DNA from: Alphaproteobacteria bacterium
GTDB taxonomy: Bacteria > Pseudomonadota > Alphaproteobacteria > Rs-D84
Assembly: GCA_017503725.1 (NCBI GenBank)
Contig: JAFVSL010000003.1
Coordinates: 6,236-70,235 of the forward strand
Reading direction: 5' to 3'
Length of the DNA stretch: 64,000 nt
This document shows, piece by piece, positions 12,096 through 54,467 of the stretch. Positions within the stretch are counted from its first letter, which is position 1; each line of letters starts with the position of its first letter. The notes under the pieces are model-generated. The model was not told the DNA's origin, searched no databases, and saw only the letters and a program-made list of their open reading frames with translations. The position numbers and the translations under genes are program-made.

Positions 12096-12112
12096 AATGT
12101 AAAGTATAACGT

Positions 12113-12562
12113 ATGAAGTTTATGAAACAAGCATTTATTTTGGCCAACCGTGCCAAATCCCACGACGATGTTCCAATCGGCGCCGTAATTGTGCGTGATG
12201 GAAAAATCATTGCACGTGGCGAAAACCAGGTTCAATATAAAAAGAATCCAACCCTGCACGCGGAAATAGTCGCAATAAATCGTGCGTGCAAGAAATTGGG
12301 AACAAAATTCTTGGACGATTGCGATATCTATGTGACACTGGAACCGTGTGCGATGTGTGCAACCGCGATATCGTTTGCCCGCATAAAAAACATATATTTT
12401 GCCGCAACCGATGAAAAGGGCGGTGGAATCACATCCAACGCACGTATTTATGAAACCGACCGCCACCTTTGGCGACCGTCTGTGCACCAGGTGCCCGAAT
12501 ATGCGGACGAATCTGCACAAATGTTGCGAGATTTTTTTGCATTGCGTCGTAAAAAACAATAA
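12113..12562 (+). CDS. tadA: tRNA-specific adenosine deaminase TadA
   Basis: CDA-fold zinc motifs HAEIVAI and PCAMCATAI. Size of 149 aa fits. Confidence 0.9.
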   Translation: MKFMKQAFILANRAKSHDDVPIGAVIVRDGKIIARGENQVQYKKNPTLHAEIVAINRACKKLGTKFLDDCDIYVTLEPCAMCATAISFARIKNIYFAATDEKGGGITSNARIYETDRHLWRPSVHQVPEYADESAQMLRDFFALRRKKQ

Positions 12563-17869: not shown

Positions 17870-17959
17870 CAAAGTTCAAAGTGCATAGTGCAAAGTTCAA
17901 TTAATGAATACATAATACTTAGATAAATAAAAGTTTATTTAACAAAAACGTTTCAGATT

Positions 17960-18118
17960 TTTGTCATTCCGGGGCGTATCGGGCCCCGAAAAATTCAAAT
18001 GAATTTTTTGGGTGATGGTGCCCCCGGAATCCAGGTGTAGGCAAATAAAAAGGAAATATGACCTGGGTCCCGTGGTCAAGCCACGGGATGACAGAATTTT
18101 TTTTGCAAAAAATTCTGT
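17960..18118. repeat. small palindromic MITE/REP-like elements (gtcattccgggg...ccccggaat and cccgtggtcaagccacggg types)
   Basis: Hairpin-forming GC-rich palindromes. Spurious ORFs across them translate to 'VVKPRDD' and 'WIPGSSPGMT'-type peptides, as known for short palindromic repeats of intracellular proteobacteria. Copy 1 carries an extra nested palindrome (ccccgaaaaattcaaatgaattttttggg) that copy 2 lacks. Confidence 0.7.
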
Positions 18119-18155
18119 TGTACTTCCTGCGATAAACTTTTATTTATATAAGCAA

Positions 18156-18184
18156 TTGCGCAAATGGAAACAATCGGTTATAAT
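18156..18184 (+). promoter_or_regulatory. sigma70-type promoter TTGCGC-N17-TATAAT of cassette 1
   Basis: -35 at 18156-18161 and -10 at 18179-18184 with 17-nt spacing. The same geometry (TTGCGT-N17-TATAAT) sits at the equivalent position of copy 2. Confidence 0.7.
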
Positions 18185-18190
18185 AATCGT

Positions 18191-18422
18191 GTTATGGTGA
18201 TTTTGCCATAATGAGGTGTAGTGACCTCTGTACTGGTGTCGGAATACAAAACTATGCCCATAGCGGTGTCGGTGGCGTATTCTGATAAATAGCTCCTGAT
18301 ATTGACGTCAGGAGGGTTGCGAATATATTGAATAAGCACACAATTCCAGTAATTGTCACTAACCTCCTGGCCACTCGTGAGAACGCGTGGTTTTTTCTTG
18401 TTAAAAAAAGGAGAAAAAGACA
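18191..18422 (+). promoter_or_regulatory. conserved ~230-nt 5' leader (candidate cis-regulatory RNA) of cassette 1
   Basis: Elements in order:
- +1 palindrome TTATGGTGATTTTGCCATAA (18192-18211)
- 24-codon uORF (18211-18285)
- helix CTCCTGA/TCAGGAG (18293-18299 / 18308-18314)
- alternative partner AACCTCCTG (18361-18369)
- hairpin plus T-run (18371-18396)
- SD aggag and ATG 18423
All are mirrored in copy 2. Confidence 0.6.
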
Positions 18423-18902
18423 ATGAAAAAAATATTGTTTGCGTTATTGCTTTTTGGAACGACTACCCATAGTAATGCAGCGACAGATTCCCAACAACTA
18501 TGTCATCCGTATGCAAACACCAGCCTTGCCGCAGAGTGCACTGTAATAAAAACAAATGCAATTGGTGCAGACGTATCTTGTTCACATCCGCTACTTGACA
18601 AGCCAGTAATGATCCATATTGTATCCAGATGCACATCGGATAGATTGGACTGTGTCGCACCTGGCTGTTCTAGCACTTTAGGGTTAACCTCTTTTAGACA
18701 AAAATATACTGCAGAATATCCTTTGCGATATTGTTGGTGCCAACGAACCGAACCGACAATGTCAGGTTTTGTCTACGCAACTGATGATGGGGATGTAGAC
18801 CGCTGTTCAAAAAACTGCGCAGAAACCTGTGCGGACATTTTAACAACCAAGAACCTTACAACCGTTCGTCGTAATCTACTTCAAGGTGTAGTAGTTTTTT
18901 AA
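18423..18902 (+). CDS. secreted cysteine-rich protein, 'YC[WF]C' family (159 aa)
   Basis: Signal peptide MKKILFALLLFGTTTHSNA. 14 Cys in the mature part. Core motif RYCWCQRTEPTMSGFVYA...CSKNCAETCA is shared with the ORFs at 18921 and 35467. Confidence 0.75.
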   Translation: MKKILFALLLFGTTTHSNAATDSQQLCHPYANTSLAAECTVIKTNAIGADVSCSHPLLDKPVMIHIVSRCTSDRLDCVAPGCSSTLGLTSFRQKYTAEYPLRYCWCQRTEPTMSGFVYATDDGDVDRCSKNCAETCADILTTKNLTTVRRNLLQGVVVF

Positions 18903-18920
18903 ATAACAAGAGGCAGAATT

Positions 18921-19724
18921 ATGAATAAGAAATTTATAAACGCTTTTATATTTGTTTTATGCGCAAACACAGCGATAGCACGTTCTGTGACCCTGTGTGT
19001 CAATCCAGACATACTTAACACATCTGTGACAAATTGGACCATTGGCACGGGCATAATCCAAAATTCAGGGAGTGGATACATCAATTTTAAAGCAAGAGTT
19101 ACAATCAACGACGGTGCCAATTATTTTATGTATACTAACGTATTGATTGATTCAAGATGCGGCAAAGTTTTAGATACGAACGTGTACAATAAGGCTTTTA
19201 ATGAGGACGATTTCTTAAACGATGCACATACAGGCAACAGCTATTGTTTCTGTAAAATGGTACGCCCATTCGTAACCCCATATTTTGCAGCCACATATGG
19301 ACCGCAAACTTCGATCCCCTATGATAATTGCGTTAATAACTGCGCTTATTATTGTGCGCATACTGTTCCAAGAGACGGTTTTCCAAACTTCATACTGGGT
19401 CAGCTTTTCAATATGCCAAATTTTGGAACTGACTATATTTCTACAGATGCTGTAACGAGAGGCCAATGCCCAACGAATTATTTGCCTATCGAAAAGGACG
19501 GCGTTGGTTTTGAAACTGATTGTACAGACACCGGTGGCACAGTATACACTAACTCCGTATTTGACTATGCCACGGCAGTAACCAGTTGCTTTTCCTCCGA
19601 TTTAGTTCCTGGCGAACCTTGTGCGATGTTTTATTGGGGCGGATATGAAGGCTCTGACGCAAGTGGCTACTTTTCTATAAAATCTAAAATATGCAATGAA
19701 TTCCCAGCAGAAGGGCTGTTTTAA
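18921..19724 (+). CDS. secreted cysteine-rich protein, 'YC[WF]C' family with C-terminal G-x-Y-x-x-D-x-SG module (267 aa)
   Basis: Signal peptide MNKKFINAFIFVLCANTAIA. Core SYCFCKMVRPFVTPYFA...CVNNCAYYCA. The C-terminus CAMFYWGGYEGSDASGYFSIKSKIC resembles the C-termini of the 34976 ORF and the giant protein. Confidence 0.75.
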   Translation: MNKKFINAFIFVLCANTAIARSVTLCVNPDILNTSVTNWTIGTGIIQNSGSGYINFKARVTINDGANYFMYTNVLIDSRCGKVLDTNVYNKAFNEDDFLNDAHTGNSYCFCKMVRPFVTPYFAATYGPQTSIPYDNCVNNCAYYCAHTVPRDGFPNFILGQLFNMPNFGTDYISTDAVTRGQCPTNYLPIEKDGVGFETDCTDTGGTVYTNSVFDYATAVTSCFSSDLVPGEPCAMFYWGGYEGSDASGYFSIKSKICNEFPAEGLF

Positions 19725-19751
19725 AAAATCCCCCGTTTGGGGGATTTTTTA
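19723..19751. terminator. bidirectional terminator (cassette 1 / rnj)
   Basis: aaaaaatcccccgtttgggggatttttt; the hairpin core matches the one at 7828-7859. Confidence 0.85.
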
Positions 19752-21518: not shown

Positions 21519-21649
21519 TTATAAATAATCCTTTGTTATAATTAACCTTTTCGCGACCAACCCGCAGTTTATTGCCAATAAAGACGTATCTTTATTTGTA
21601 GTAAACCTGGGGGTCGCGTACCATCCCCCGGATGTTTTATTCGCCGATA

Positions 21650-21822
21650 AAATACAAAAGGGGGTTATTTTGTCGGAATTTTTCCACCGACGGAACCGAT
21701 TGTACTATTTTCTTTACAGATATGCAAGTTTATTTATCAAAACGATTGCACCACTCGGTATATCGTATACCGACGACACAGGAACATACGAATTTACAGA
21801 TGCGTGTACGATGAGCAACTAA
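21650..21822 (+). pseudogene. frameshifted relic of a cysteine-rich family gene (C-terminal module only)
   Basis: Frame 1 reads ...APLGISYTDDTGTYEFTDACTMSN*, against APAGESYTDDTGIYEFTDACAME* for the 34976 ORF. Upstream similarity (STDGTDCTIFF vs SSPSGDCIMYA) lies in a different frame. There is no start codon or signal peptide. Confidence 0.55.
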
Positions 21823-21848
21823 AAATCCCCCAATTGGGGGATTTTTTT
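21821..21848. terminator. bidirectional terminator
   Basis: aaaaatcccccaattgggggattttttt. Confidence 0.85.
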
Positions 21849-21852
21849 GTAT

Positions 21853-22323
21853 TTATTCTGCGACGGGCGCTTCTGGTGCCGGCGTCGGTTTACGCATTTT
21901 ATGTTTAAATGCTTTAAATTCAGACTTATCCACACAGCCATCGTTATTCACATCGATTTGTGGTAACATTTCAACCATCTTTGGGCATTTTACAACCAGG
22001 CATCCATTATCATCGAACTGTGGACGTGGCATCTTGGCGTGTTTTTTGCACGGCATAACCTTTGCCGCCGCGAATCCCAGTGCAAAAAATACCAATACAA
22101 CAATGAATTTTTTCCAGAAACCACAGTGATGCTTTTTGCATTCACAATTTCCACCGCACGGACAACCCTTGTCACATCCGCACGCGTGTGTTTCTACGAC
22201 CGGCGCGACAACTTTTAATTCAGGGGCCTTTTTTGCGACGGTTTTCTTAACAGGGGTCTTTTTTGCGACTGTCTTCTTAGTAGTTGTTTTCTTTACAACT
22301 TTTTTTGTTGTTTTTTCTGCCAT
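21853..22323 (-). CDS. membrane protein with Lys-rich repeat N-terminus, Cys/His cluster and EF-hand
   Basis: The N-terminus is a KK[TV]xxKK repeat (KKVVKKTTTKKTVAKKTPVKKTVAKKAP). It is followed by HACGCDKGCPCGGNCECKKHHCG, the TM helix FIVVLVFFALGFAAA and a canonical EF-hand loop DVNNDGCVDKSE. Confidence 0.6.
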   Translation of the reverse strand: MAEKTTKKVVKKTTTKKTVAKKTPVKKTVAKKAPELKVVAPVVETHACGCDKGCPCGGNCECKKHHCGFWKKFIVVLVFFALGFAAAKVMPCKKHAKMPRPQFDDNGCLVVKCPKMVEMLPQIDVNNDGCVDKSEFKAFKHKMRKPTPAPEAPVAE

Positions 22324-33528: not shown

Positions 33529-33560
33529 CAAAAAATTCCCGCTTCGGCGGGATTTTTTTA
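33529..33560 (+). terminator. rho-independent terminator after rpsI
   Basis: aaaaaattcccgcttcggcgggattttttt. Confidence 0.85.
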
Positions 33561-34933: not shown

Positions 34934-34941
34934 ATATAAAG

Positions 34942-34968
34942 AAAACGCGCCACATGGCGCGTTTTTTC
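34942..34968. terminator. bidirectional terminator (tig / cassette 2)
   Basis: aaaacgcgccacatggcgcgtttttt. Confidence 0.85.
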
Positions 34969-34975
34969 TTGCTCT

Positions 34976-35455
34976 TTATTCCATCGCACACGCATCTGTA
35001 AATTCATATATGCCGGTGTCATCGGTATACGACTCGCCCGCGGGCGCGTACATTATGCAATCCCCGGATGGGCTTGACACCAAACACGATTCCGCCGTGC
35101 CAATGGCGATTGTGCCACTGGGGCAACTGGTTGCAAGGGTGATATATGGCCTGTCAATCGCGATATATCCCGCTGGACAATCCGTACTGGGCACATTACC
35201 CAAAATACACACACCGGCGTCACCGCATTTGAATCCACTGGCACAGGGTGGCACACCGGTGTAAACCGTCAGTGTGCTACTGGTACAGGTCTGTCCCAGT
35301 GTTGCCGCCGCCACACAGGTTGCCAGTGATAGACTACTCGTTCGCAAACATACCCCAGAATCACATTGCGTACTGTATAAACAATTTTGACCATTTGCGA
35401 GCCCTGCAATCGCGGATAACGGCGCCAGAGACATTAAAAATATCAATCGCTTCAT
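34976..35455 (-). CDS. secreted cysteine-rich protein with C-terminal G-E-x-Y-x-D-D-T-G...C module (159 aa)
   Basis: ATG 35455 with an aaggg SD 8 nt upstream (the track ORF begins at GTG 35464). Signal peptide MKRLIFLMSLAPLSAIAG. 15 Cys in the mature part. C-terminus CIMYAPAGESYTDDTGIYEFTDACAME. Starts 11 nt after the stop of the upstream gene. Confidence 0.75.
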   Translation of the reverse strand: MKRLIFLMSLAPLSAIAGLANGQNCLYSTQCDSGVCLRTSSLSLATCVAAATLGQTCTSSTLTVYTGVPPCASGFKCGDAGVCILGNVPSTDCPAGYIAIDRPYITLATSCPSGTIAIGTAESCLVSSPSGDCIMYAPAGESYTDDTGIYEFTDACAME

Positions 35456-35466
35456 TCGCGCCACCC

Positions 35467-35916
35467 TTAGTTTGATATTGAGCTAAACAGCGCGGACCGG
35501 AACTCGGGATAGTACTGAGCGTGCGTCGCACAATTGCCCGAACAGTAGAACGCGCAATTACTGGCGGGCGTGTATATGTTGGTGTATACCCAAGACGAAA
35601 CGGCCGGTTCAACCATCTTGCACCAGCAATAAAAATTGACTTCACTTGAGGCGTCGCTTAGCGTTGGTAATGCGCCGTCTGAATATATTGCATAATCCGT
35701 ATCGCCCTTTACATTAGAACACGCCGAAACTCCCTTAATCGGGACGTTGGTACCATCGGTGGTACAAGTTACCTCCCATTCGGCCGTACCATTCCAGTTG
35801 ACTGGCGTTGATGTACACGTGGTGGTTGATGAATCCAATGCCACGCATTGTTGTACCGCCATTGCGGGCACGGCAAGCAACGTGCCGACTGCGGTTAAGG
35901 TTAAAAGTTTTTTCAT
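35467..35916 (-). CDS. secreted cysteine-rich protein, 'YC[WF]C' family (149 aa)
   Basis: ATG 35916 with a gggag SD (the track ORF begins 13 codons upstream). Signal peptide MKKLLTLTAVGTLLAVPAMA. Core FYCWCKMVEPAVSSWVYT...CAFYCSGNCA. Confidence 0.75.
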   Translation of the reverse strand: MKKLLTLTAVGTLLAVPAMAVQQCVALDSSTTTCTSTPVNWNGTAEWEVTCTTDGTNVPIKGVSACSNVKGDTDYAIYSDGALPTLSDASSEVNFYCWCKMVEPAVSSWVYTNIYTPASNCAFYCSGNCATHAQYYPEFRSALFSSISN

Positions 35917-36161
35917 ATGTATCACTCCCTTTCTTTGTTCTTCGCGAAAAAACAAAAACCACCGAAAACTTTCGAGTGGTCAGGAGGTTAGAAACAATCT
36001 TGTGAATTGTGTGCTTATTCAATATATTCGCAACCCTCCTGACACTAATGTGCTCAGGAGTTTTATTTCATCAAAACACGACACGCCGGCAATTTACCAT
36101 TGCGTCATCTTTTAATGCACAAGTCGGGTTTCTACACCCCATTATGGCAAATCGCCATAAC
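35917..36161 (-). promoter_or_regulatory. conserved ~245-nt 5' leader (candidate cis-regulatory RNA) of cassette 2
   Basis: Mirror of 18191-18422:
- palindrome TTATGGCGATTTGCCATAA (36142-36160)
- 23-codon uORF (36071-36142)
- CTCCTGA/TCAGGAG helix with a different loop
- the same 40-nt invariant core
- AACCTCCTG
- hairpin plus T-run (about 35949-35980). Confidence 0.6.
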
Positions 36162-36167
36162 ACACCA

Positions 36168-36196
36168 ATTATAACTAAATCTTTCCCCTTACGCAA
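36168..36196 (-). promoter_or_regulatory. sigma70-type promoter TTGCGT-N17-TATAAT of cassette 2
   Basis: -35 at 36191-36196 and -10 at 36168-36173 on the minus strand. Same spacing and position as in copy 1. Confidence 0.7.
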
Positions 36197-36454
36197 TTGC
36201 AATGATAAATAAAAGTTTATCGCAGGAAGTACGAACAGAATTTTTTGCAAAAAAATTCTGTCATCCCGTGGCTTGACCACGGGACCCAGGTCATATTTCT
36301 TTTTTTATTTGCTTTCACCTGGATTCCGGGGTCAAGCCCCGGAATGACAAAAACGTTAAACGTTTTTGTAAACTGATTACCCCACTAAACTTTTATTTAA
36401 CGAAGTAATATTATGTATGCCAACACTAATCACTAACCACTTACGGCTCACCAC

Positions 36455-36480
36455 TAAAAAATCCCCCAAACGGGGGATTT
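36455..36480 (-). terminator. rho-independent terminator after the giant gene
   Basis: The minus strand reads aaatcccccgtttgggggatttttt directly after the stop at 36484. Confidence 0.85.
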
Positions 36481-36483
36481 CCC

Positions 36484-39400
36484 TTACCAAGACATATATC
36501 CGGGGTTACATTTACGTTCGCACTTTTTCGTGTCTGGATTCCATATCATTGTTCCGGTTTCGTCTTCGTATTCTTCACCAACTGGACAAATTGGAACGCA
36601 CTCATTATTTTCAAGGTTATACAATTCTCCCTGGTACATACAGGCCGCAATCGTACATCCTTCAATATAACTGCTTGCCGCGTCTTGCCCCAGTACGCTT
36701 TTGGCATTGCGACAGCGTCCACATTGTTTGTTTGGTTCGTCTGATTCATATGAATCATTTGTATATCCGGGTTCGCACGACGTTGCGATACATTCGCCCC
36801 ACGTGCCGCGATTTTCATCCCATTCACGTGTTCCCGTACCGTGTTCAACCGAGCACACCTCTACATCCGGGACACAGGCATTTGATGAAACGTGATATCC
36901 ATCAACGCATTCTGTAATCTTGCAGATTCCAAATGCGCCCAACTTGTTGTCCCACGTCTGACTGGCCGCATATGCGTTTGGTGCCGTGCAAGTTTTTACG
37001 TCATCTGCGCACTGGTCGCCCTCTGGATGGAATCCTGTATGACATTTCGCCACCAGACAGTTTCCATTTGGTTTGTACGCGGTTGCATTGGCGCGTTCAC
37101 ATCTCTGACAACGACCATCAATCAATTCATAGTCTGGATTACAAGATGTTTCAACGCACGTCTCGTATCCCTTGATTGTCTGAATTTCGCACGGATTTCC
37201 CGTCTCAGACATTCCCTTGAATGTACAAACATTGTCGTACTGTACGGTGTCACTGTCGCGTATTGCCATACCGCCCAAGATTTCGTAATCTTCACACGTT
37301 GTATAGCATTGTTCAATCTTGGTTGAACCCGCACCGGACAATTTATGTGTGCCACCCGTTAATTCATCACAGGTCATTGGTACGCCATCTGGGGTACCGT
37401 CTAAATCAATATCCGACCCAGACATTGCATCACAAACACTGTTTTCTGGGCACAATTCACATTGTGATTTATCCCCCGCCAGATAGTATCTTGTATCACA
37501 TACCTGAATTTCACAAGTGTCTGTCATATCCGCACCCTGATAGTCGCGGCCAACCATTGTTGTGACGTTGATCGGCGCATCACAGTCGCCAAAGCATTGT
37601 CCCACATTGGTCGAACCCGCATCTGATTCTGGGTAACGCCCATCAAACAGCGCGCTACACACCTGTGGTTCAGCATTCGCGACACCGTCAAATCCTGTAC
37701 GTGTGGATTCATCACAAATACTGCCGGCTGGACAAATATCACACTGATTATTATTGATGTAATATTTTTCATCACACGTATCCAACATACACGCCGTGCA
37801 ATCGGACGAATAATCTTCTGCATTCGTGTTGTATCCACAGGTCTTAATTCCGCCACCGTGTGCAACAGAGCAGGGCATTTCAGTCATAAAGCACGCGGAT
37901 GCATCACTGCTGGTGTCTGATTCTGTTTGTCCCGCGCGACCGTCAAATGTTGCACAACCCTGGCGTGCTGTTGGGCGTCCCTCGTTACCCGCATCTGCAA
38001 CCGGCCCAAAGAAGCCATAGCCAACCTTGGTACAATCCGTATCGCCAATCGCATTCCAATAGTATCCTGGGTCACACTTCTGGAACATACGCGCACGACA
38101 TTCCGTGTATCCTTTGTTCTCGGGCGAATAGATACAGTATTGGAATCCAGAACCGTGATCTGATGTGAATGGATTTTCCGCCTTGAAGCACGATGTAGAT
38201 TCCGCAGCATTATCGACGTTTGTGTCACCACCGTCTGGACATGGCGTTCTGTTCAAACTGCCTGGTTCACTGTACGCATCATATCCAACCGCCGTACAAT
38301 CAATTGCCGCCGCATTTTCACGATAGTATCCACCCTGGCACGTTGTTATATACTTGTCACGACAATTGGTCGCATACTTCGCACTGCCGTCTGCATTGTC
38401 GGACGTGTAATTACATACCTGGGTACCCGCGCCGTATGTCGCGTTGTATTCAACGGTCTTGTAACATTCACCGGCATCATCTGCGGTCGTCAGTGTGCCC
38501 GTCAACCCATTTTCTGGACACTCATAACGTTTCAGGTCATCTGTACCACTGTAATGGTTTATACCAACCTCGACACAGTCTATACCAGATACATAATAGT
38601 ATCCCGCAACACATTTCTTGACCGAATGGTCGCGACAGGAGGCATCATATGCCTTTGTGTCTTCATCATAGTTACACGTTTGTGTCCCACTGGCCTTGCC
38701 GGTTGTGGACGTGTATGCCAACCCTTGCTTATAGCATACACCACTGTTGGTCGCGCTTGCGCCACCGGCCGATATGCCACCATCTGGGCAAATTTCGTGA
38801 CCGCCAACGACACCCGTATCTGTTGGGTATGTTCCGCCCGGACACCAGTGATCGGCTGCACAAACAACACAATCTCCGCCCCGGCCTGGGTAATAATATC
38901 CAGCCTCACAGACCGTGTCGCCTTCGGACCAAACAACATTTGCGGTTGTATCGTTTGTTGTCACACGCAGGGCCGCATTTGTATTTTGCAAAGTACCCGC
39001 CGCATCAATAATCATAACGTCGCCGACGCTGTAACCCGCAAAGTTGTATCCAGATTTACCGGGCAGGGCACTCGTATCTATTGTTGTTAATGCCTTGTTT
39101 GCCGCTACATCTTCGAACCAGCCCACCGTGTATTTCAAATATACTGGTTTTTGTGTTGCGTTTTCTGTGGCATCACTTGCCACCAATTCAATTTTGAATA
39201 CATCTGGTTCCCAAATGGCGTACAGTTTTGTATCGCTACCGTTGGCCGAGATGTTTTCAGATGTTGCGACATTCGCGGCATAGCACGCACCCGAACCGTT
39301 CGCATTGGTGCACCATTTGTTCGCAGACACATATCCCGCACGTGCCAGTCCATCCGTCGCTGGTAACTTACAGGCGCCACTGTCAAATGTGCATTCGACA

Positions 39401-42400
39401 TATGCTGTAACATCGCCTGTGCCCTGGTTTTTATCCAGCGTAACCGTATATTTATTCGCGACACATTGCGGATTTGTGCCGTTTTTCGCAGTATAACCCG
39501 CATTGCACGTAATTGTATAAGAACAGGCTGCGTATTCAGCACTGGCCGTGTTGTATGGCGCGTTGGCTTCGTCTGGTGTTACAGTCTTGCTGTTTGTGAT
39601 GTCTGACGTTGTCAAAGAACAGGCACTGTAACAATCCGCCTCTGTTGCACGTGGCGCATTAGAACCGATTCCGTCATTTGCCGCACCGGTTTCGCCTGGA
39701 CAGGCGTGCGCGGCCATACTTTCTGTGTCCTCGGTCCCGTTTTCTACAACCGGTGCCGGACTGTAATATCCATCTGTTACCGGCGTACATGCGTTGCCAA
39801 CACCGCTATAGTAATAGCCCGCATCACACGTCAGCGCAATAGAGTCACAGTTTGTTGTGTATATTGCACTATTACCGCTACCACTTGTATACCAACAATC
39901 CCACTTTGCGGTACCAAAGTTGAATGTCATATCACCCCCATCGGTTGTAACCTTGCGACAGTCTGATATGCTGTCCGCACCAGCGGTGGTTGTTGCACCA
40001 TTCGCCGGACAAGTTTCCATACAACCGGTCGAGCCTTCGTTAATTTCGCCACTGCCCGGGCAATATTTTCCCAATTCACAGCGTGTACGCACACCGTTGT
40101 TGTAATAATATCCGGCCTCGCACGCAACCATATTCTGGTCCCAAATCGCATACAGGGTAATTTCACCACCATCCGACAGCAGGTTTTTAATACTGCCGTT
40201 TGCGACAATGGTTTTTCCTTTGCCGTCTTTCTGGGTATTCCAGACACTGAATGTCTTGTTCGGCATTTCAATTGTATCAGCGGCTGCACATTCCATATCA
40301 TACACGCATGTAACATCCGCAACATTCAGGCTTCCTGCATCTGTCGGATCAAAATGCACCGTAAATGTTGTTGGTGTCCAGTTTGCAACAACGGTTATGT
40401 GACCTGTTGTGCCCGCAACAATTTCATTGTTTTCAACCTTGTCACCGGTCCAACCATCAAAGATATAGCCCGTTTTTACAGGATCCTTTAATGCAATTGG
40501 CGTATCTGATATTGTATAAGCATCCGGATTTTCGGCATTGTTGGTACCGCCGTCCAAATCATATGTAATCACATACGAATCAGAAGTCCAGTTCGCAGTC
40601 AGAACCATATCGCCGATTGAACCATTTATAATCTGTGTAACCGTATTGCCATTTGCGTCGGTCCACTTGCTGAAAGTAAACCCTGTTTTTTCTGGTTTCT
40701 TTAAAACGATAGTGTTTGTTTCAACAGTGTACTCATCTGGGTTAGATTCACCGGTCTTATAAGTCCCGCCATTAAGATTGTATGTAATCTTATAGGTAAC
40801 AGGTGTCCACTTTGCCCAGAATTCTTTGTTGCCGATTGTGCCTGCTGAAATCTCGGTAACACTTGTGTTGAAACCGCTGTCGCTGAACCAGCCACCAAAA
40901 TCATAACCACGTTTTGTTGGATTGGATAACACAAATGCATCTTCAATTGTATATGTTTCTGGGTTTGAATTGCCCGCATAATATCCGCCATTCAAGTTGT
41001 ATTTGATGGTATACGAATTTGGCGTCCACTGTGCAACAAGCGTTATGTCTGCCGTATACGTGTTATTTGCAGGCAACAGACCATCTGTGCCGATAACAAG
41101 TGTACCCTTGCTATCATAATAGCCCATAAATGTATAACCATTGCGTGTAGGCAATACAATCGATTCCAAGGACGCACCACCGGCGGCATTGTCATACCAG
41201 CCAACCGTATATGTTTGATAAACGGTGCCCTGACCACCAACGCCGTTATTATCATTCAGCGTAACCGCATATGTGCCCGGTGTACATGATGCAACATCCG
41301 ATGCCGTCATTGGTGAACCATACAATGTTTTTCTATAACCATATTGAACCGCAGACGTCGTATTTGCAACATATCCAGCATCACAAACAAATGTAAACGA
41401 ACAGAAAGAGGTTGGTGTACAAACCGTCTGTGGATACCAACGATATCCCTTGTTAGGCAATGTACCTTCTGTACACGTGGCGTGTTCTGGACAGTGGTTT
41501 ATATTGCCAGACACTTCTCCTTGCTCATTTATAACATAATCGTTCGCATAATCACACGTTGGTGCACAGGCATCATAACAAGCATTTGGACCATTCTGTA
41601 TCGAAGCCATAGAAGAATAGTTATAAAAGTCAACGGGTTCCAAACTCTCGCACGTTGCGCTGCAGGTTGGATATTCTTCAGACATGTAATAGCCCGATTT
41701 ACACACGGTTTGTGAAGAATATAAATCAACCGGACACGCTGTGCTAGATACAACACACTCTTCTGAATCGTAATACTGTACGCCGGACAACTTTGTGTCA
41801 GAAAGAAATTCGCATTTTAAGAAATTTCCTGGACAACTGCTTGGTACTACACAGCTTATCTCACAAGTCTTGTAACACTGTTGTTCGGCGTCGCCGGCAA
41901 CACAAATATTGTAAGTGCCCTGATATTCGGCGCCCAGCGCAGAACACGACGTTGTACAACTTGAGCATACGCCATTGCTTGGGTATGTGCCACTTGCGCA
42001 ACCACAGGCACCATCTTCAGTGCTGTTGCACGCATTCCATTGTGCGGTAAAGGTCAGACTGGCCGTACAGGTGCCCTTTGTGACTGATGTGACCGTCGCA
42101 CCCGTGTCATCCTTCCATCCTGCAAATGTATAACCCGCGCGTGCAATGTTATCAGCCGTCGGCAGGGCAAACGTATCCGTATCCGCATTACACGACAACA
42201 TATAGTCACCGCTCCATTTTGTGTCGTCTGGGGTTACGTATGTGATGGTCTTTGCCCCTTCGGCAACATATTCTGCGGTAAATGTTTTTCCACTTGTATA
42301 AGTCCATAGAAAATCTGTTCCCGCGGTGTGAATTGTTGTCCCGTCATTCCAGTGGCTGAAATCATAACCAACTGGTTCGGTGCAAGTATTTGTCGCCGGT

Positions 42401-45400
42401 GCAAAGCCCGTATTATAGATTGCCGTTGCATTTGCCGGTGCGGTACCCGTTCCGTCGCCACAATTGTATGTAACGGTATAGGACTTTGGAGTACATACAC
42501 AGGACAAGCCGGTGCATTTTGGTGTTTCGTAACCCGTGGCGCATTCCGCACTTGCCACACAGGTGTTATTAGAAACACTGACCGAACACGTTGATACACC
42601 GGTACCCTTGGTGCAATCTGCACACTTGGTCCATTTTGCGGTGAACGACATTTCGGATACACACGTGCCCGCCGCAACAGATGTTGCCTTTTCCCCCGTT
42701 GCGTCGTTGTACCATCCATCAAATGTATGACCAGCGCGTGTAATTGTTGGCAATGTGATATCGCCCGACATAACGTTACATTCTGTGTCACTGACCGTTG
42801 TTCCACCGTTTTCATTAAATGTAACATTGTTCATACCGCCAACAGCCCACTGGGCATATAGTGTCGTTGCCTTTGCAATATCCCAGGTGCGTGCCGATTG
42901 ACCCACCGCAGTATAGTACTGTGTGCCACCCGTCTTGGCATCAAACCAACCTGTGAACACGTATCCAGCCTTTGTTGGTGCGGTCGCACTGATTGCCGGC
43001 ATTGTGCTGTCATACGTTGCTAAAACATCTGCTGACTGACCGCCTGTACCACCATTTGCGTCAAACGATATTGTGTACTGGTTCGCCGTCTTACAGGCAT
43101 AGTATGTGCTGTTTGACGGTGTTGTAAACGTGCTTACCTTAGCGGTACAGGATTGGGATGTTCCCCAACCGCCTGTAAATGTATATCCGGTCTGTGTCAG
43201 GACAGATGCATCACCAAAATTACAATCTGCACCCTGGTAACAGGTCACAGATGCGCCAAGCGAACCGGCCCCGCCATTTTTATCCAGCGTTATCACGCGA
43301 TAACAGTCGGATGATGAATCGTGGTCTGCCGCTGTTGTGCCGGTGATGGTATATCCAGTCGTACAACTGTTTGCGCAACTGGTTGCAGACGAACCGTTTG
43401 TGATCTGGTATTTACCTGTTCCACATACAACGCACGACAGGGTTGCGCCATTCACATATGCACCGGCTTTGGCTGTAACAGATGTAACAGTTGGCACACA
43501 CGCGGTCTCGGTTGTAATGCCATAAAAGTCTTTATAATTGCAAGACGCCCATGTCGCACTGTGACAGTTTGTTGGGATATTGCCCTTGGTAACCGTTACA
43601 AGATTATAACAATCTTCTTTTGCATCAGCCCCCAGTTCACTGTCCGGATATTCCGTCGGACAGGTCCCAGTAATCCCCTGATTAACAGAGGTGCTATATG
43701 TGTATTCACCACCACCACAGTAACTGTCTTCTGGACAGGATTCACACTGTGTTTTTAACATTGGCAAATATTCGCCTTTGTCACACGTATATTTGTTGGC
43801 GGTCCATTGTGCGGCCAGTGTCGTGTTCCCCACCGTTGTATAGGTGTATTCGGTGTTCGCCTTTGGGTACTTGCCGTTCCAACCCGTAAATGTATATCCC
43901 GTACGGGCACACATAGCCCCTGGCTGGGTTGTGAATTTATCGTCAAATGTCACCGTTTGTGTATTGCTGTATGGGGTTTGAGTATTGCCACCATTACAAT
44001 TATAAGTGACTGTATATTCATTTGGGGTTAATTTACCATAGACCGTGATATTTCCCGTGCCAGATGTCTTTGTAATTCTGTTGTTGTATGCGGCATCATT
44101 AAACCAACCGCCAAACGTATATCCGGCTTTGGATGCGTCTGTGAACGTCACAGGCGATTCGACCGTATAGGTTGTAGCATTGCTGTGTGTCGCACCATCA
44201 GCGATTTTATATGTAATTGTATATGATACTGCATCACCCCAAATTGCATATAGCGAAACGCTGCCATTATTATTGGTTGTCAGGTTGGAAACGCTTTCTT
44301 TGTCTGAATATTCAACATTGCCATCACTGCTGCGTGCCCATCCCTGGAATTTTAGACCGTCTTTTGTAAACTTGTTTTCGCTCAGATTTTGTGCAACACC
44401 ATATGTAAATGACTGGCTGCTCATTGTGCCCGAACCGGTATTTGCATTAAACGTAACCGTATATTTATTTGGTGTAGCGGAACATTTGCTTACGTTGTTA
44501 CTGGACGTGCCACAGGTTGCTGTATTATATCCTGCCGACGCGGTTGCTGTTGCGGTACCACAGATGCCCAACGGTGCACTTGGTGTACAGGATGCAACAC
44601 CTGTTCCCCGGTCACAGGTACACTCTGCGCCCCAGACTGCGTACAAATTAACCTTGGCGCCGTCTACACTGCTCAGGTTTGATACACTTTGTTTGTTGGC
44701 GTATTTGGCACTGCTTGCGCCACTGGTTTCGGCCCAACCCAAGAACTGTTTCGCGCCATTTGTGAATCCATTTGTGGACAAGGTGTCCGACTTGTTGTAT
44801 GTGTGCGTGCTGGTTGCGGTTGTTCCAGAACCACCATTTGCATTATATACAATCGTATATGTAATCGGATCACAACTTGGGTTATACGCTCCGGAATTTG
44901 AGATGTCCTTGTACCCGGTTGCACAGTTGGTTGCATAAGAACACTGGTTATTCACGACACTTAACACACAGGTCGCACCCGTTCCCTCTGCACACGCTGT
45001 ACAGGCGCTCCACACCGCATACAGTGTCTTTTCACCACTTGTGATAATATTTTTGATACTTGCGCCCGGCGCGTATTCGGCCACCGTTGCATTGTTTGTC
45101 GATGCCCAACCTTGGAAAGTACTGTTGGTCTTCAACATTGTACCCTGGCTTGTCGCCAAACAGGTCCCATTATAAGAACAGTTCTGCGAACTGACCGCTG
45201 GTACGCCAGAGGTTGCGCCGTTTGTATCATATTTAATGGTTATCGAATTTGCAGAACACGCATAATTATAAGATGTAGAACCAACCGTGCCCGTGTATGT
45301 CCCGCTGGTCCCATAGCCATTGTTACAAGTAACTGTACATTTTGGTGCGTTTGTCGTTGTGTTCGCTGGTTTCGCGGTTCCATTATCAGCACTGCAAGTT

Positions 45401-46608
45401 GGTGTTTCCCAAACTGCGTATACAGTTGTGGTCGCCTTGAATGTCAAAGCAGTGCTGCCACTTGTGGCGTCGTTTGATGTGGCCCATCCTTTGAATATCT
45501 TTGCGCCATTGCTAAGCCCGCAAGAAGATGCGTTCCACGATGGTAATGTGCAGGCCTTATTATAGTAACACGTTGCCGAACCATCAGATGTGCTGGATGT
45601 ACCACCACAGGTGCCCGACCCACCATTTTTATTTAATGTAATTGTGAAATAACAGTCATTTTCTGTTTTTGCGCTTGTTGCACTGGTACCCGCCGGACAT
45701 ATTGTCAGACCCGCATCAACACCGCTGTTTGACCCGGCTACGCCCTTGCAATAATTGCCGGCCGTACACTGTGCACATTTCGCTGTATCTGCATCCCAAT
45801 ATGTACCGGCCTCACAATCATATGTGCTACCACCCCAAATCGCATAAAGTTTTACATTGTCTGCCGGTGTGTATTCGCCGGTGCTGCCGCTTGTGGCGGT
45901 GCTTGATGTGGCCCAGCCATTAAAGATATATCCGGCGCGTTCAGGGGTTGGCATTGTTACGGGTACTCCCGTCCATTGGGCATACAACGTTAAATTTTTT
46001 GAGGTTGCTTTGATTTGTGTTGTTCCGGCGTCTGTTATATATCCAGTTGCACCAACAAGTTGTGTGCCACCCGTTGCCGCAGTGAAATATCCATTAAATG
46101 TGTACGTGGCAGTTTGGGATGTTGTGGCAACTGTACCACCGTTTGCATCATATGTAATTGTATATGAACGCTTTGGTACGGTAATTGGGTTCGCAGATGT
46201 GGTCATAACCTTTGTGCGCGCGGCGTCCAAATACACATTTGTTCCATATTTCCCATAGATTTTAGTTGTGCCGGCGGTTGTCGCACTTGTGTTATTCAAA
46301 GTAATAGTTGTTTCAATTAGCGAACAAGCTGTTGTTGTGGTAGTGGTTGCCCCCGTTGTGGTGCCACCAACACTGTATCCGGTTGAACACGTACAGGCCG
46401 ACGCCGAATTTTCATCGGTCGTAGAGGAATTTTCTGGACACGCCACACAGGAATTTCCGACCTCGGTTCCATTCAGATAATACCCTGCATTACAGGACGT
46501 ATACATCTTGATATCGTCACAGATGTATCCCGCCGCAAACGAATTCGTTGTGAAAACGACACCCGCAAATAATACAAAAAACCTCAGGAAACAGCGTATT
46601 TTTCCCAT
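36484..46608 (-). CDS. giant secreted cysteine-rich mosaic protein (3,374 aa): Listeria/Bacteroides-type B-repeat modules plus CxxGYY cysteine-rich repeats; putative surface adhesin/host-interaction protein
   Basis: Uninterrupted 10.1-kb frame. ATG 46608 with a gagaggaag SD. Signal peptide MGKIRCFLRFFVLFAGVVFTTNSFA.
- About 19 modules resemble YT[VI]T[FY]xxNGG....GY.F.GW......[LF][YT]A.W (Flg_new/InlB B-repeat-like), spanning roughly 40140-46100.
- A Cys-rich insert lies at about 41350-42030.
- The C-terminal region 36484-40140 is dominated by C-x-[AGP]-G-Y-Y...C...G-x-Y repeats resembling ephrin-receptor-like/GCC2_GCC3/VSP-type modules. Confidence 0.85.
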   Translation of the reverse strand: MGKIRCFLRFFVLFAGVVFTTNSFAAGYICDDIKMYTSCNAGYYLNGTEVGNSCVACPENSSTTDENSASACTCSTGYSVGGTTTGATTTTTTACSLIETTITLNNTSATTAGTTKIYGKYGTNVYLDAARTKVMTTSANPITVPKRSYTITYDANGGTVATTSQTATYTFNGYFTAATGGTQLVGATGYITDAGTTQIKATSKNLTLYAQWTGVPVTMPTPERAGYIFNGWATSSTATSGSTGEYTPADNVKLYAIWGGSTYDCEAGTYWDADTAKCAQCTAGNYCKGVAGSNSGVDAGLTICPAGTSATSAKTENDCYFTITLNKNGGSGTCGGTSSTSDGSATCYYNKACTLPSWNASSCGLSNGAKIFKGWATSNDATSGSTALTFKATTTVYAVWETPTCSADNGTAKPANTTTNAPKCTVTCNNGYGTSGTYTGTVGSTSYNYACSANSITIKYDTNGATSGVPAVSSQNCSYNGTCLATSQGTMLKTNSTFQGWASTNNATVAEYAPGASIKNIITSGEKTLYAVWSACTACAEGTGATCVLSVVNNQCSYATNCATGYKDISNSGAYNPSCDPITYTIVYNANGGSGTTATSTHTYNKSDTLSTNGFTNGAKQFLGWAETSGASSAKYANKQSVSNLSSVDGAKVNLYAVWGAECTCDRGTGVASCTPSAPLGICGTATATASAGYNTATCGTSSNNVSKCSATPNKYTVTFNANTGSGTMSSQSFTYGVAQNLSENKFTKDGLKFQGWARSSDGNVEYSDKESVSNLTTNNNGSVSLYAIWGDAVSYTITYKIADGATHSNATTYTVESPVTFTDASKAGYTFGGWFNDAAYNNRITKTSGTGNITVYGKLTPNEYTVTYNCNGGNTQTPYSNTQTVTFDDKFTTQPGAMCARTGYTFTGWNGKYPKANTEYTYTTVGNTTLAAQWTANKYTCDKGEYLPMLKTQCESCPEDSYCGGGEYTYSTSVNQGITGTCPTEYPDSELGADAKEDCYNLVTVTKGNIPTNCHSATWASCNYKDFYGITTETACVPTVTSVTAKAGAYVNGATLSCVVCGTGKYQITNGSSATSCANSCTTGYTITGTTAADHDSSSDCYRVITLDKNGGAGSLGASVTCYQGADCNFGDASVLTQTGYTFTGGWGTSQSCTAKVSTFTTPSNSTYYACKTANQYTISFDANGGTGGQSADVLATYDSTMPAISATAPTKAGYVFTGWFDAKTGGTQYYTAVGQSARTWDIAKATTLYAQWAVGGMNNVTFNENGGTTVSDTECNVMSGDITLPTITRAGHTFDGWYNDATGEKATSVAAGTCVSEMSFTAKWTKCADCTKGTGVSTCSVSVSNNTCVASAECATGYETPKCTGLSCVCTPKSYTVTYNCGDGTGTAPANATAIYNTGFAPATNTCTEPVGYDFSHWNDGTTIHTAGTDFLWTYTSGKTFTAEYVAEGAKTITYVTPDDTKWSGDYMLSCNADTDTFALPTADNIARAGYTFAGWKDDTGATVTSVTKGTCTASLTFTAQWNACNSTEDGACGCASGTYPSNGVCSSCTTSCSALGAEYQGTYNICVAGDAEQQCYKTCEISCVVPSSCPGNFLKCEFLSDTKLSGVQYYDSEECVVSSTACPVDLYSSQTVCKSGYYMSEEYPTCSATCESLEPVDFYNYSSMASIQNGPNACYDACAPTCDYANDYVINEQGEVSGNINHCPEHATCTEGTLPNKGYRWYPQTVCTPTSFCSFTFVCDAGYVANTTSAVQYGYRKTLYGSPMTASDVASCTPGTYAVTLNDNNGVGGQGTVYQTYTVGWYDNAAGGASLESIVLPTRNGYTFMGYYDSKGTLVIGTDGLLPANNTYTADITLVAQWTPNSYTIKYNLNGGYYAGNSNPETYTIEDAFVLSNPTKRGYDFGGWFSDSGFNTSVTEISAGTIGNKEFWAKWTPVTYKITYNLNGGTYKTGESNPDEYTVETNTIVLKKPEKTGFTFSKWTDANGNTVTQIINGSIGDMVLTANWTSDSYVITYDLDGGTNNAENPDAYTISDTPIALKDPVKTGYIFDGWTGDKVENNEIVAGTTGHITVVANWTPTTFTVHFDPTDAGSLNVADVTCVYDMECAAADTIEMPNKTFSVWNTQKDGKGKTIVANGSIKNLLSDGGEITLYAIWDQNMVACEAGYYYNNGVRTRCELGKYCPGSGEINEGSTGCMETCPANGATTTAGADSISDCRKVTTDGGDMTFNFGTAKWDCWYTSGSGNSAIYTTNCDSIALTCDAGYYYSGVGNACTPVTDGYYSPAPVVENGTEDTESMAAHACPGETGAANDGIGSNAPRATEADCYSACSLTTSDITNSKTVTPDEANAPYNTASAEYAACSYTITCNAGYTAKNGTNPQCVANKYTVTLDKNQGTGDVTAYVECTFDSGACKLPATDGLARAGYVSANKWCTNANGSGACYAANVATSENISANGSDTKLYAIWEPDVFKIELVASDATENATQKPVYLKYTVGWFEDVAANKALTTIDTSALPGKSGYNFAGYSVGDVMIIDAAGTLQNTNAALRVTTNDTTANVVWSEGDTVCEAGYYYPGRGGDCVVCAADHWCPGGTYPTDTGVVGGHEICPDGGISAGGASATNSGVCYKQGLAYTSTTGKASGTQTCNYDEDTKAYDASCRDHSVKKCVAGYYYVSGIDCVEVGINHYSGTDDLKRYECPENGLTGTLTTADDAGECYKTVEYNATYGAGTQVCNYTSDNADGSAKYATNCRDKYITTCQGGYYRENAAAIDCTAVGYDAYSEPGSLNRTPCPDGGDTNVDNAAESTSCFKAENPFTSDHGSGFQYCIYSPENKGYTECRARMFQKCDPGYYWNAIGDTDCTKVGYGFFGPVADAGNEGRPTARQGCATFDGRAGQTESDTSSDASACFMTEMPCSVAHGGGIKTCGYNTNAEDYSSDCTACMLDTCDEKYYINNNQCDICPAGSICDESTRTGFDGVANAEPQVCSALFDGRYPESDAGSTNVGQCFGDCDAPINVTTMVGRDYQGADMTDTCEIQVCDTRYYLAGDKSQCELCPENSVCDAMSGSDIDLDGTPDGVPMTCDELTGGTHKLSGAGSTKIEQCYTTCEDYEILGGMAIRDSDTVQYDNVCTFKGMSETGNPCEIQTIKGYETCVETSCNPDYELIDGRCQRCERANATAYKPNGNCLVAKCHTGFHPEGDQCADDVKTCTAPNAYAASQTWDNKLGAFGICKITECVDGYHVSSNACVPDVEVCSVEHGTGTREWDENRGTWGECIATSCEPGYTNDSYESDEPNKQCGRCRNAKSVLGQDAASSYIEGCTIAACMYQGELYNLENNECVPICPVGEEYEDETGTMIWNPDTKKCERKCNPGYMSW

Positions 46609-46741
46609 ATCTTCCTCTCTTTTGTCTTTTATGGTAGTAAAAATGCGCCATATCGCGCAAGGGGAAATATTAAAAATCAATTTAAAAAATATATTTGACG
46701 CATTTTTGGTGCTTGACTTTTTATAAAAGTGTATTTTTTTG

Positions 46742-54071: not shown

Positions 54072-54424
54072 AATAAATTAAGAATGCCGGGTTTCTGGTG
54101 CCATGTACCCGGCGAACACCGCAATTGCTTAAACGAATACGGTCAACAATCGCCAACCATATTCAACGCCATATTTAGGCAGCCATTGCAAGGCGAACAT
54201 TGTCGTTCGCAGCGATTCTATCGCCATTCAGTTTTTATTTGGCTTTTAACGACACCACGTCGGATTCACCCAGTTTGTCTTTCATCATCTGTCGAATCTA
54301 TGTCAGCCCCATAACCAAATACGACCATAAATCGTATCAAGTAATGGTGGAGCTGTGGGGTACCGCCCCCCAGTCCATAATGACTATTTCACAACGGATT
54401 CAGAATCATCATCGTTTGCACGAC
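54072..54424 (-). ncRNA. ssrA: tmRNA gene, circularly permuted two-piece type (acceptor piece, spacer, coding piece)
   Basis: Reading the minus strand:
- Acceptor piece ends ...GGGG-GGCGGTA-CCCC-ACAGCTCC-ACCA at 54345.
- The coding piece starts 35 nt later (54310) with GGGGCTGACATAGATTCGAC, which pairs with CAGCTCC and includes the G3:U70 Ala identity pair.
- Tag frame gct gcg aac gac aat gtt cgc ctt gca atg gct gcc taa gives (A)ANDNVRLAMAA*, with its stop at 54175-54177.
- Terminator hairpin gccgggt...acccggc at about 54086-54113. Confidence 0.9.
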
Positions 54425-54430
54425 CCCAAG

Positions 54431-54459
54431 ATTATAGTCTTTTACACTGGAAATTGCAA
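54431..54459 (-). promoter_or_regulatory. sigma70 promoter TTGCAA-N17-TATAAT for ssrA
   Basis: -35 at 54454-54459 and -10 at 54431-54436 on the minus strand. Confidence 0.75.
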
Positions 54460-54467
54460 GTTTTTAG

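Follow-up and report, generated by a model that had tools for sequence, protein, structure and literature searches.

A previously uncatalogued, pseudoknotted leader RNA family upstream of secreted-protein and XRE regulator genes in gut Alphaproteobacteria of the order Rs-D84

Two related leaders upstream of two-gene operons

The 64,000-nucleotide (nt) stretch of an Alphaproteobacteria bacterium genome analysed here (assembly GCA_017503725.1, contig JAFVSL010000003.1, positions 6,236 to 70,235; hereafter the window) carries two similar non-coding blocks of ~500 nt each, which a repeat search identified as an inverted pair (arms 18047-18203/36149-36305, 157 nt, 83% identity; arms 18307-18402/35948-36043, 96 nt, 80%; shorter arms further upstream). 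Each block comprises a putative promoter and a promoter-proximal leader of ~230 nt, and each stands before a two-gene operon. Leader copy 1 lies at 18185-18413 on the plus strand and leader copy 2 at 35936-36167 on the minus strand. An original prediction had described a duplicated promoter and leader block whose differences fall in loops and not in stems. We find that both leaders belong to a previously uncatalogued, large, pseudoknotted family of Rs-D84 gut Alphaproteobacteria.

Aligned with MAFFT (17880-18425, plus strand, against 35915-36440, minus strand), the blocks show a column identity of 82%. Copy 1 has a 42-nt insertion, and one block of ~60 nt is unrelated in sequence between the copies. 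A 32-nt core, GGTTGCGAATATATTGAATAAGCACACAATTC, occurs twice in the window in exact form, where zero occurrences are expected. For the leader itself, as it would be transcribed, the identity is only 75%, compared to 83-91% over ~200-250 nt further upstream. Since copy 2 is nearer to leader L154 of another species-level genome (86% identity) than to copy 1, the sequences speak for two old paralogues of a multi-copy family and not for a simple recent duplication. Thus, the duplicated block stands insofar as there are two similar copies, while only its upstream part looks recently shared.

This upstream part is a palindromic element resembling a miniature inverted-repeat transposable element (MITE). 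It is located at 36242-36366, upstream of the copy-2 promoter (arms of the GTCATTCCGGGGC..GCCCCGGAATGAC type), and at 17945-18111 in copy 1, where it carries the 42-nt insertion (~17976-18017). Within the window the palindrome arms (GTCATTCCGGGGC.., GTCATCCCGTGG..) occur only at the two blocks. Judged from the sequences, the upstream near-identity reflects this shared element, which would have arrived by recent insertion or gene conversion. No such element was found upstream of the orthologous leader L154, though L154 has the promoter of copy 2. As a long palindrome of the GTCATTCC...GGAATGAC type the copy-2 element resembles WsnRNA46 (RF02625; 48.8 and 40.9 bits on the two strands, below the cutoff of 65.3), and the copy-1 element scores 20.4 bits. 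It differs in this comparison in that the palindrome of the window lies upstream of the -35 box, separate from the leader.

Putative promoters can be read between the palindrome and the leader. At copy 2, TTGCGT (36191-36196) is followed after 17 nt by TATAAT (36168-36173, minus strand), which is conserved with L154; at copy 1, TTGCGC, 17 nt and TATAAT cover 18156-18184 on the plus strand. A consensus promoter scan did not flag the copy-2 -35 box, which shares only three of six bases with TTGACA. In most members of the family a TATAAT-like -10 box is located 7-10 nt before the first hairpin (P0), and several have a TTGCAA-like -35 box.

Members and hosts of the leader family

An exact 23-mer from the core is present in 56 metagenome loci (human gut, rumen, termite gut and other sources), and a 19-mer in at least 118 loci of species-representative genomes. 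Among the 19-mer matches listed, almost all are in metagenome-assembled genomes from animal guts labelled Alphaproteobacteria bacterium, Rickettsiales bacterium or Candidatus Enterousia sp.; three matches in unrelated taxa are due to chance. Candidatus Enterousia belongs to the GTDB order Rs-D84, in which genomes are <1 Mb and a partner-dependent lifestyle is presumed (PMC12306168). From 28 non-redundant leaders we built a covariance model, R1, with 193 positions and 38 pairs, which covers P0, P1, P4 (strands a and b), Pj, P5 and the terminator. R1 had 69 matches in the metagenome loci, including diverged copies without the exact core, 111 in 100 genome loci and 31 more in the remaining loci, and recovered 167 full-length members of 170-250 nt. 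In the window it matched only copy 1 (142.9 bits, E 2.9e-36) and copy 2 (141.9 bits, E 5e-36, model positions 1-193).

All non-termite loci share one layout. A TATAAT-like box is followed by P0, a strand of the form GRGG-N-7/8 nt, an optional insert hairpin, strand a (CUCCAAC or CUCCUGA), strand b (GGUUGGAGG or GUCAGGAGG), the core, the short hairpin P5, a strand of the form 7/8 nt-ACCUC, strand c (CCUCCAACC or CCUCCUGAC), a terminator hairpin with a U-run, a Shine-Dalgarno (SD) sequence and the start codon.

Eleven termite-gut loci (L009, L012, L021, L027, L034, L035, L037, L043, L051, L057 and L058) form a subtype with the identical 23-nt core, different flanks (GAAGGGUGG..., GGACCUCCAGC...) and no open reading frame (ORF) close downstream; R1 matched their core alone or scored 28-35 bits. 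The core is also present in four IMG/VR 'viral' contigs. One of these, the uncultivated virus genome (UViG) L177, has a leader at 12016-12211, at its edge after restriction-modification genes, and encodes contractile-tail proteins (sheath, tube, tape measure and baseplate hub); it probably represents a prophage or a tail-like element within the genome of an Rs-D84 bacterium. At L005 (332-546) the exact core and an outer helix of the b:c type, with no recognisable P0 or P1, lie upstream of a gene for a 226-aa Bro-N (phage antirepressor-like) protein.

Our literature searches returned no description of the leader family, although this does not prove that none exists, as catalogue papers list thousands of unnamed motifs. 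The core sequence was not found in the literature, including the first 200 of the 408 supplementary files of Fremin & Bhatt 2021, the text of Weinberg 2017 had no matches to Alphaproteobacteria, XRE or related terms, and a literature search for RF32 gave nothing relevant.

A covarying, pseudoknotted structure with alternative pairing

Both window leaders fold far better than shuffled sequences (z = -5.55 and -5.75; none of 200 shuffles as good) into a common predicted architecture, in which the helices of the original prediction form. The pairwise RNAalifold comparison that it had suggested yielded 47 pairs, eight of them with both sides changed. For the family, we used a metagenome alignment (A3, 56 distinct sequences) and a genome alignment (A4, 111 distinct sequences). 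In A3, 93.2% of the cells are paired compared to 76.4% after shuffling, and 29 of the 38 pairs show compensatory change; the values for A4 are 94.9%, 75.8% and 33 of 38. None of 500 shuffles of either alignment reached the observed values, and sliding the 3' partner by 1-3 columns left 36-49% (A3) or 31-49% (A4) of the cells paired. Two points count against taking these figures at face value: the alignments were fitted to the model, so that pair counts lean towards structure, and members were found via the exact core, so that ascertainment accounts for part of its conservation. Helices outside the core had no part in finding members. With the same helices in 167 homologous leaders, the support for the earlier claim, that selection acts on a structured RNA and that the copies do not merely show a duplication in neutral decay, goes well beyond what two sequences could provide, and it is selection on structure that keeps the two old paralogues of the window similar.

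The 5' hairpin P0 (36141-36161, minus strand; 18191-18212, plus strand) is the GTTATGG..CCATAAT palindrome that had been placed at the +1 site, and it does lie just after the TATAAT box; all seven of its pairs covary (97.5%/97.6% paired). The main long-range helix, P1, a pseudoknot and an alternative pairing of strands b and c had escaped the original prediction. P1 is a 12-bp helix between GGGGUGUAGAAAC (36128-36140, minus strand) and GUUUCUAACCUC (35984-35995, minus strand) in copy 2 and between 18213-18225 and 18355-18366 (plus strand) in copy 1. As helix 2 of the family it has 8-9 compensatory pairs. The window copies differ here by GUGAC/GUCAC (copy 1) and GAAAC/GUUUC (copy 2), and no member lacks complementarity of the two strands, for which more than 20 different sequences occur, such as UAGUAAC/GUUACUA, UCAUAAC/GUUAUGA, UUCAAGAC/GUCUUGAA and CUGAUAGC/GUUAUCAG.

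The P2 5' strand (CUUGUG in copy 2; 36118-36123, minus strand; 18231-18236, plus strand) pairs with the P5 loop and, once P5 has formed, creates the pseudoknot, as CUUGUG/CACAAG in copy 2 and ACUGG/CCAGU in copy 1; other members have CGUAAG/CUUACG, CAACAUG/CAUGUUG, AAAGUAG/CUACUUU and more. Duplexes with the native partner are more stable than those with swapped partners (-5.7 versus -1.4 kcal/mol in A3, -9.0 versus -4.3 in A4). In the genome set (109 sequences, 106 distinct 5'-strand segments), 78 sequences have their native partner among the top 5%. The variable insert hairpin P3 (36069-36117, minus strand; 18237-18287, plus strand) is long in both copies and unrelated in sequence. The region between the +1 palindrome and the first helix had been called almost entirely different between the copies. 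This is true for ~60 nt, yet these correspond to the P2 5' strand and the optional P3, which is shorter or absent in other members.

Strand a (CUCCUGA; 36054-36060, minus strand; 18293-18299, plus strand) pairs with strand b (GUCAGGAGG; 36035-36043, minus strand; 18307-18315, plus strand) to form P4 (helix 3, 5-7 compensatory pairs). This is the helix that had been noticed for its replaced loop, and both versions are in place: CTCCTGA-tattgacg-TCAGGAG at 18293-18315 and CTCCTGA-gcacattagtg-TCAGGAG at 36035-36060 on the minus strand. It is followed by the most conserved element, the Pj hairpin UUGC-GAAUAUAUUGAAUAA-GCA(C) (36012-36033, minus strand; 18317-18338, plus strand), which is the same in both copies. 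In diverged members the Pj stem covaries (UUGC/GCAA, UCGU/ACGG, UCGC/GCGG, CCGU/ACGG, CAGC/GCUG, UGGU/ACCG) and the loop retains GAAUA...AAUAA, and one member (L006, 820-1017) has a hairpin in place of the loop middle. These features speak for an element at the RNA level and against a DNA operator. The P5 hairpin (ACAAU..AUUGU; 35994-36010, minus strand; 18340-18356, plus strand), whose loop is the P2 3' strand, shows compensatory change in three of three pairs (helix 5).

Directly before the SD sequence lies a hairpin with a U-run typical of an intrinsic terminator (35947-35980, minus strand; 18370-18396, plus strand; helix 6, 86-87% paired). In both window copies the G+C-rich hairpin is directly followed by the U-run. 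The terminal hairpin and T-run had been recognised before and are present as CCACTCGTGAGAACGCGTGG in copy 1 and ACCACTCGAAAGTTTTCGGTGGT in copy 2; a simple terminator scan missed both owing to bulges. A T-run is found in 161 of the 167 members.

Strand b is also complementary to strand c (CCUCCUGAC; 35979-35987, minus strand; 18363-18371, plus strand), which overlaps the 3' end of P1 and the terminator base. P1 takes ACCUC from strand c and the terminator base takes 1-4 nt, and in the minimum-energy folds of several members strand c pairs with the SD sequence around the terminator. The b:c duplex was parsed per sequence, with the UUGG and CAGG types one column apart in register. It measures 9-10 bp, has -18 to -22 kcal/mol in most members and is complementary in ~146 of 151 parsed members, its variable part occurring in at least seven complementary variants (UCA/UGA, GUU/AAC, GCU/AGC, GCA/UGC, UCG/CGA, GUG/CAC and UGU/ACA). 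Since some of the covarying c positions serve no helix of the minimum-energy fold, the alternative pairing itself appears to be selected.

Several other readings of the leader were rejected. An internal sigma-70 promoter in the core (TTGCGA-N17-CACAAT, or the TTGACG-N16-TATATT of the scanner) fails because the -10-like hexamer sits in the covarying P5 and many members lack the conserved A2. For a leader peptide or mini-ORF behind the strand-b GGAGG, no frame is conserved in diverged members. A dif/Xer-like site or XRE operator in the core does not agree with the loss of the palindrome and the retention of the RNA stem. Pairing of the leader loop with the coding region of the copy-2 gene (35681-35695, a 15-nt complement on the mRNA strand with one mismatch) is not a feature of the family: among 154 loci, four loop-complement matches compare with six loop-like matches on the mRNA strand, and the complement at 35681-35695 is probably due to chance.

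Genes behind the leaders and genomic context

The first gene after copy 2 has its SD sequence (GGGAG) at 35926-35930 and its ATG at 35916-35914 (minus strand), so that the boundary originally set at 35917 was exact. The copy-2 operon (34976-35916, minus strand) encodes first a 149-aa protein (35467-35916) that has a signal peptide and the motif YCWCK, and then a Cys-rich protein of 162 aa (34976-35464); the copy-1 operon (18423-19724, plus strand) encodes proteins of 159 aa (18423-18902) and 267 aa (18921-19724). All four have N-terminal signal-peptide-like sequences and many cysteines. None matched Pfam or NCBIfam at their cutoffs, except for a borderline Colipase N-terminal match of the 162-aa protein (29.6 bits, cutoff 27). 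The first genes of both operons are weak paralogues (E 3e-7) that share only the short YCWC(K/Q) motif, so that conservation is far higher in the non-coding DNA than in the genes behind it. Paralogy of the downstream genes was thus rejected as the cause of the likeness, as the proteins share a 35-aa motif (37%) compared to 82% for the upstream DNA.

In the family, 83 of the 167 leaders precede genes for signal-peptide-like proteins of several families, many of them Cys-rich and without a Pfam match, and 35 precede genes for small XRE-type helix-turn-helix (HTH) proteins (Pfam HTH_3, HTH_31, HTH_19). The HTH genes examined behind leaders are monocistronic. With several leader copies per genome, about half of them before secreted, often Cys-rich proteins and many before small XRE regulators, the pattern points to a dedicated RNA-based regulon for cell-surface and interaction genes.

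The two leaders of the window had been seen as pointing inward across 17.5 kb of essential genes. This geometry is incidental, and each leader would drive its adjacent two-gene operon only, since the operons end at bidirectional terminators (19724-19750 for copy 1, 34940-34967 for copy 2) and the ~15 kb between them hold unrelated genes on both strands. The copies sit between housekeeping genes, with rlpA-like and RNase J genes to one side and, to the other, genes for trigger factor and a probable giant surface protein; the window also encodes TrcR and other housekeeping proteins.

A near-identical bidirectional terminator, AAAAATCCCCC-NNNN-GGGGGATTTTTT, recurs at gene ends in the window (19724-19750, 21821-21847, 33532-33558 and 36457-36483). 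Just upstream of the copy-2 block ends a 3398-aa ORF (36484-46680, minus strand) with ten stretches of the Listeria-Bacteroides repeat (Flg_new); its product is probably the giant surface protein, and the ORF has no leader of this family. A 51-nt inverted repeat links 21763-21813 with 34982-35032 (88% complementary). Here the 3' end of the gene for the Cys-rich 162-aa protein reappears in the last part of a 60-aa ORF (21632-21814), which is followed by a terminator; this ORF is probably a remnant or mini-paralogue without a leader. A 156-aa protein (21853-22323, minus strand) has a histone-H1-like, Lys/Ala-rich N-terminus and a weak EF-hand match, and its N-terminal coding region contains a tandem 30-nt repeat (22221-22280). 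An alpha-type two-piece (permuted) transfer-messenger RNA with the tag peptide AANDNVRLAMAA is encoded at 54083-54463.

A predicted attenuator and its alternatives

We consider the leader most likely to be a transcription attenuator, possibly with a translational component, that an effector would switch between two folds. Each block would then combine a sigma-70-type promoter with a cis-acting, riboswitch-like leader that gates the access of RNA polymerase to the gene. In fold A, the predicted minimum-energy fold, the GRGG-N-7/8 nt strand would pair across 110-180 nt with the 7/8 nt-ACCUC strand (P1), the next segment with the P5 loop (the P2 pseudoknot) and strand a with strand b (P4). Pj would be displayed, and the tail of strand c would be free to build the terminator base, upon which transcription would stop. 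In fold B, strand b (GGUUGGAGG or GUCAGGAGG) would pair with strand c (CCUCCAACC or CCUCCUGAC), breaking P4 and the base of P1. This would take 1-4 nt from the terminator base and keep the anti-SD-like CCUCC off the SD sequence, allowing read-through and translation. The balance between the folds may be set by a small molecule, or by a protein that recognises the conserved Pj or the junction.

Several findings weigh against this proposal. By nearest-neighbour energies, fold A is favoured over the fold with enforced b:c pairing by ~8-10 kcal/mol in both window copies, and this preference holds without the pseudoknot, for the full leader as well as for transcription intermediates. Termination is therefore the predicted default state, and b:c pairing would need to be favoured for expression. 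With just 1-2 nt of the terminator stem shared by b:c in the window copies, mutual exclusion is weak there, and ~5 of the 151 parsed members lack extended b:c complementarity. The 12-bp P1 is much longer than the P1 helices of typical ligand-gated RNAs, and the controlled genes are not metabolic, so that they suggest no ligand. For 23 of the 167 leaders there is no ORF within 150 nt; six of the 167 lie at contig ends. Finally, leaders form tandem arrays of 2-6 copies (L006, 151-1017; L175, 82-1416; L025, 8159-8606; L023, 8683-9123). Arrays in which each copy has its own promoter-like boxes and terminator resemble stand-alone RNAs: L006 has four copies, each with TTGCAA-N17-TATAAT-like boxes, and L175 has six, and a gene comes after the last copy only.

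These arrays and the copies without a nearby ORF would suit an element that is primarily a stand-alone, trans-acting small RNA (sRNA) of ~180 nt with its own promoter and terminator. Such an RNA might, for instance, sequester a Pj-loop-binding protein as a decoy or act via the anti-SD motifs CCUCC, and the genes behind it would be expressed only by incidental read-through. The closest Rfam family, sRNA-Xcc1, points in the same direction, being an 88-nt RNA (PMC2996969) with five clustered copies in Xylella (PMC12189769). However, in 138 of the 167 copies an SD sequence and a start codon follow, the latter at a median of 10 nt past the end of the model and ~30 nt past the U-run. This spacing is too short to accommodate a second promoter, which makes the gene dependent on read-through. 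In addition, the orientation of leader to gene is constant, and the CCUCC motifs are paired in both predicted folds. On this evidence we regard a stand-alone sRNA as unlikely.

Less likely again, in our view, is a leader that adopts fold A constitutively and does not switch, serving processive antitermination through binding of a protein or RNA polymerase, in the manner of the HK022 put or Bacillus EAR RNAs, or serving as an element of mRNA stability or processing, with b:c complementarity as a by-product. The strong thermodynamic preference for fold A, the long P1, the complex pseudoknotted fold with its invariant loop and the non-metabolic genes all agree with it. Against this, at least seven variants preserve b:c complementarity at positions without a role in any helix of fold A, it is in the b:c-closed fold that the match to RF02221 (sRNA-Xcc1) arises, and neither EAR nor another antitermination family of Rfam was matched.

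It is very improbable that the blocks have no RNA function and only incidental helices, their similarity stemming from recent duplication, from a mobile promoter cassette or MITE, or from an operator in the DNA for XRE proteins. A MITE-like palindrome does lie a short way upstream of each copy, XRE genes are often found nearby and the core contains the DNA palindrome AATATATT, but the compensatory changes at 33 of 38 pairs in the 111 genome-derived sequences are strand-specific and include G-U pairs, the orthologous leader L154 lacks the MITE-like element, and diverged members lose the palindrome while they keep the stem and the GAAUA/AAUAA flanks, one of them with an inserted hairpin.

Relation to known RNA families

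The put and EAR RNAs resemble the leader as structured cis RNAs that lie downstream of a promoter and upstream of a terminator and have non-metabolic targets. To our knowledge they do not use three-strand alternative pairing, and Rfam scans revealed no sequence or model similarity of the leader to processive antitermination RNAs. As in riboswitches and attenuator leaders, a promoter-proximal, multi-helix, pseudoknotted domain with invariant unpaired nucleotides precedes a terminator and the SD sequence, and one strand can enter either of two mutually exclusive helices. The leader also has the covarying, structured 5' untranslated domain of a riboswitch, given the putative promoter position. 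Regarding the expression platform, the terminator and the b:c helix are both conserved, yet only 1-4 nt are common to b:c and the terminator stem, and fold A has an advantage of 8-10 kcal/mol. Unlike riboswitches, which control metabolism or transport, the leaders precede genes for secreted proteins and XRE regulators, which do not form one coherent metabolic or transport function; P1 is unusually long and stable, the overlap of alternative helix and terminator is small, and no Rfam riboswitch was matched.

At gathering score, Rfam 15 gave no match within the leader for the whole window and five further loci, and at E<=10 both window copies had nothing relevant in the leader, RF02221 included. 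Two other loci reached sub-threshold scores with sRNA-Xcc1 (L004, 35.7 bits, E 5e-5; L125, 36.5 bits, E 2e-3; cutoff 53) and aligned over the whole model (positions 1-87); since the defining score was not reached, membership in this family is not established. The matched part is the module from strand b to strand c in the b:c-closed fold, with its outer helix and Pj-like and P5-like hairpins. Fold B resembles the RF02221 consensus in its G/C-rich 9-bp outer helix (GGxxGGxGG/CCxCCxxCC) and in the two successive hairpins. In the two sub-threshold matches the AAUA...UAA loop of the first hairpin and a UUUGA-like joiner align as well. The ~9-bp outer helix around two hairpins is found in the leader as b:c with Pj and P5.

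sRNA-Xcc1 was detected by Northern blot in Xanthomonas campestris, with published ends for Xcc 8004 only (PMC2996969). Descriptions of this RNA present it as acting in trans, and it is known from prophages, genomic islands and the cassettes of integrons. In Xanthomonas the integron cassette with the widest distribution carries it ahead of symE (bioRxiv 10.1101/2025.06.18.660453), some APSE phages have it upstream of a gene for an ORF6N protein, and the five clustered Xylella copies belong to a genomic island (PMC12189769). The leaders share with these contexts the site just upstream of a gene, the clustered copies and, at L005, a location before a Bro-N protein; the parallels are suggestive. 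They differ in being 2-3 times longer, with P0, the 5' strands of P1 and P2, strand a and a separate terminator as extra parts, which jointly compete with the Xcc1-like fold. They also differ in being chromosomal, multi-copy and restricted to gut Alphaproteobacteria of the Rs-D84 type. The window copies, with their housekeeping neighbours, do not lie in an integron cassette, transposon, plasmid or prophage, and few of their relatives lie near phage-like genes.

For RNA biology, the 167 members with their heavy covariation constitute a well-supported orphan riboswitch-like class, with a clear predicted three-strand switch that is testable by mutation, from the uncultured Rs-D84/Enterousia bacteria, whose gene regulation is almost unstudied territory. 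Tentatively, we propose a wider reading, which we hold to be possible although doubtful: the leader may represent a new class of RNA switch that responds to a signal, as a riboswitch or as an attenuator gated by a protein, in which a 5' 'anti-fold' and a terminator were added to an sRNA-Xcc1-like three-way junction to co-ordinate secreted or surface proteins and XRE regulators to one cue. An obligately partner-dependent gut bacterium with a genome of <1 Mb would then use a single RNA cue response. By extension, the sRNA-Xcc1 RNAs of cassettes, prophages and islands would be cis-acting, attenuated leaders and not trans-acting sRNAs, which might provide a mechanistic explanation for a long-unexplained RNA family on mobile elements.

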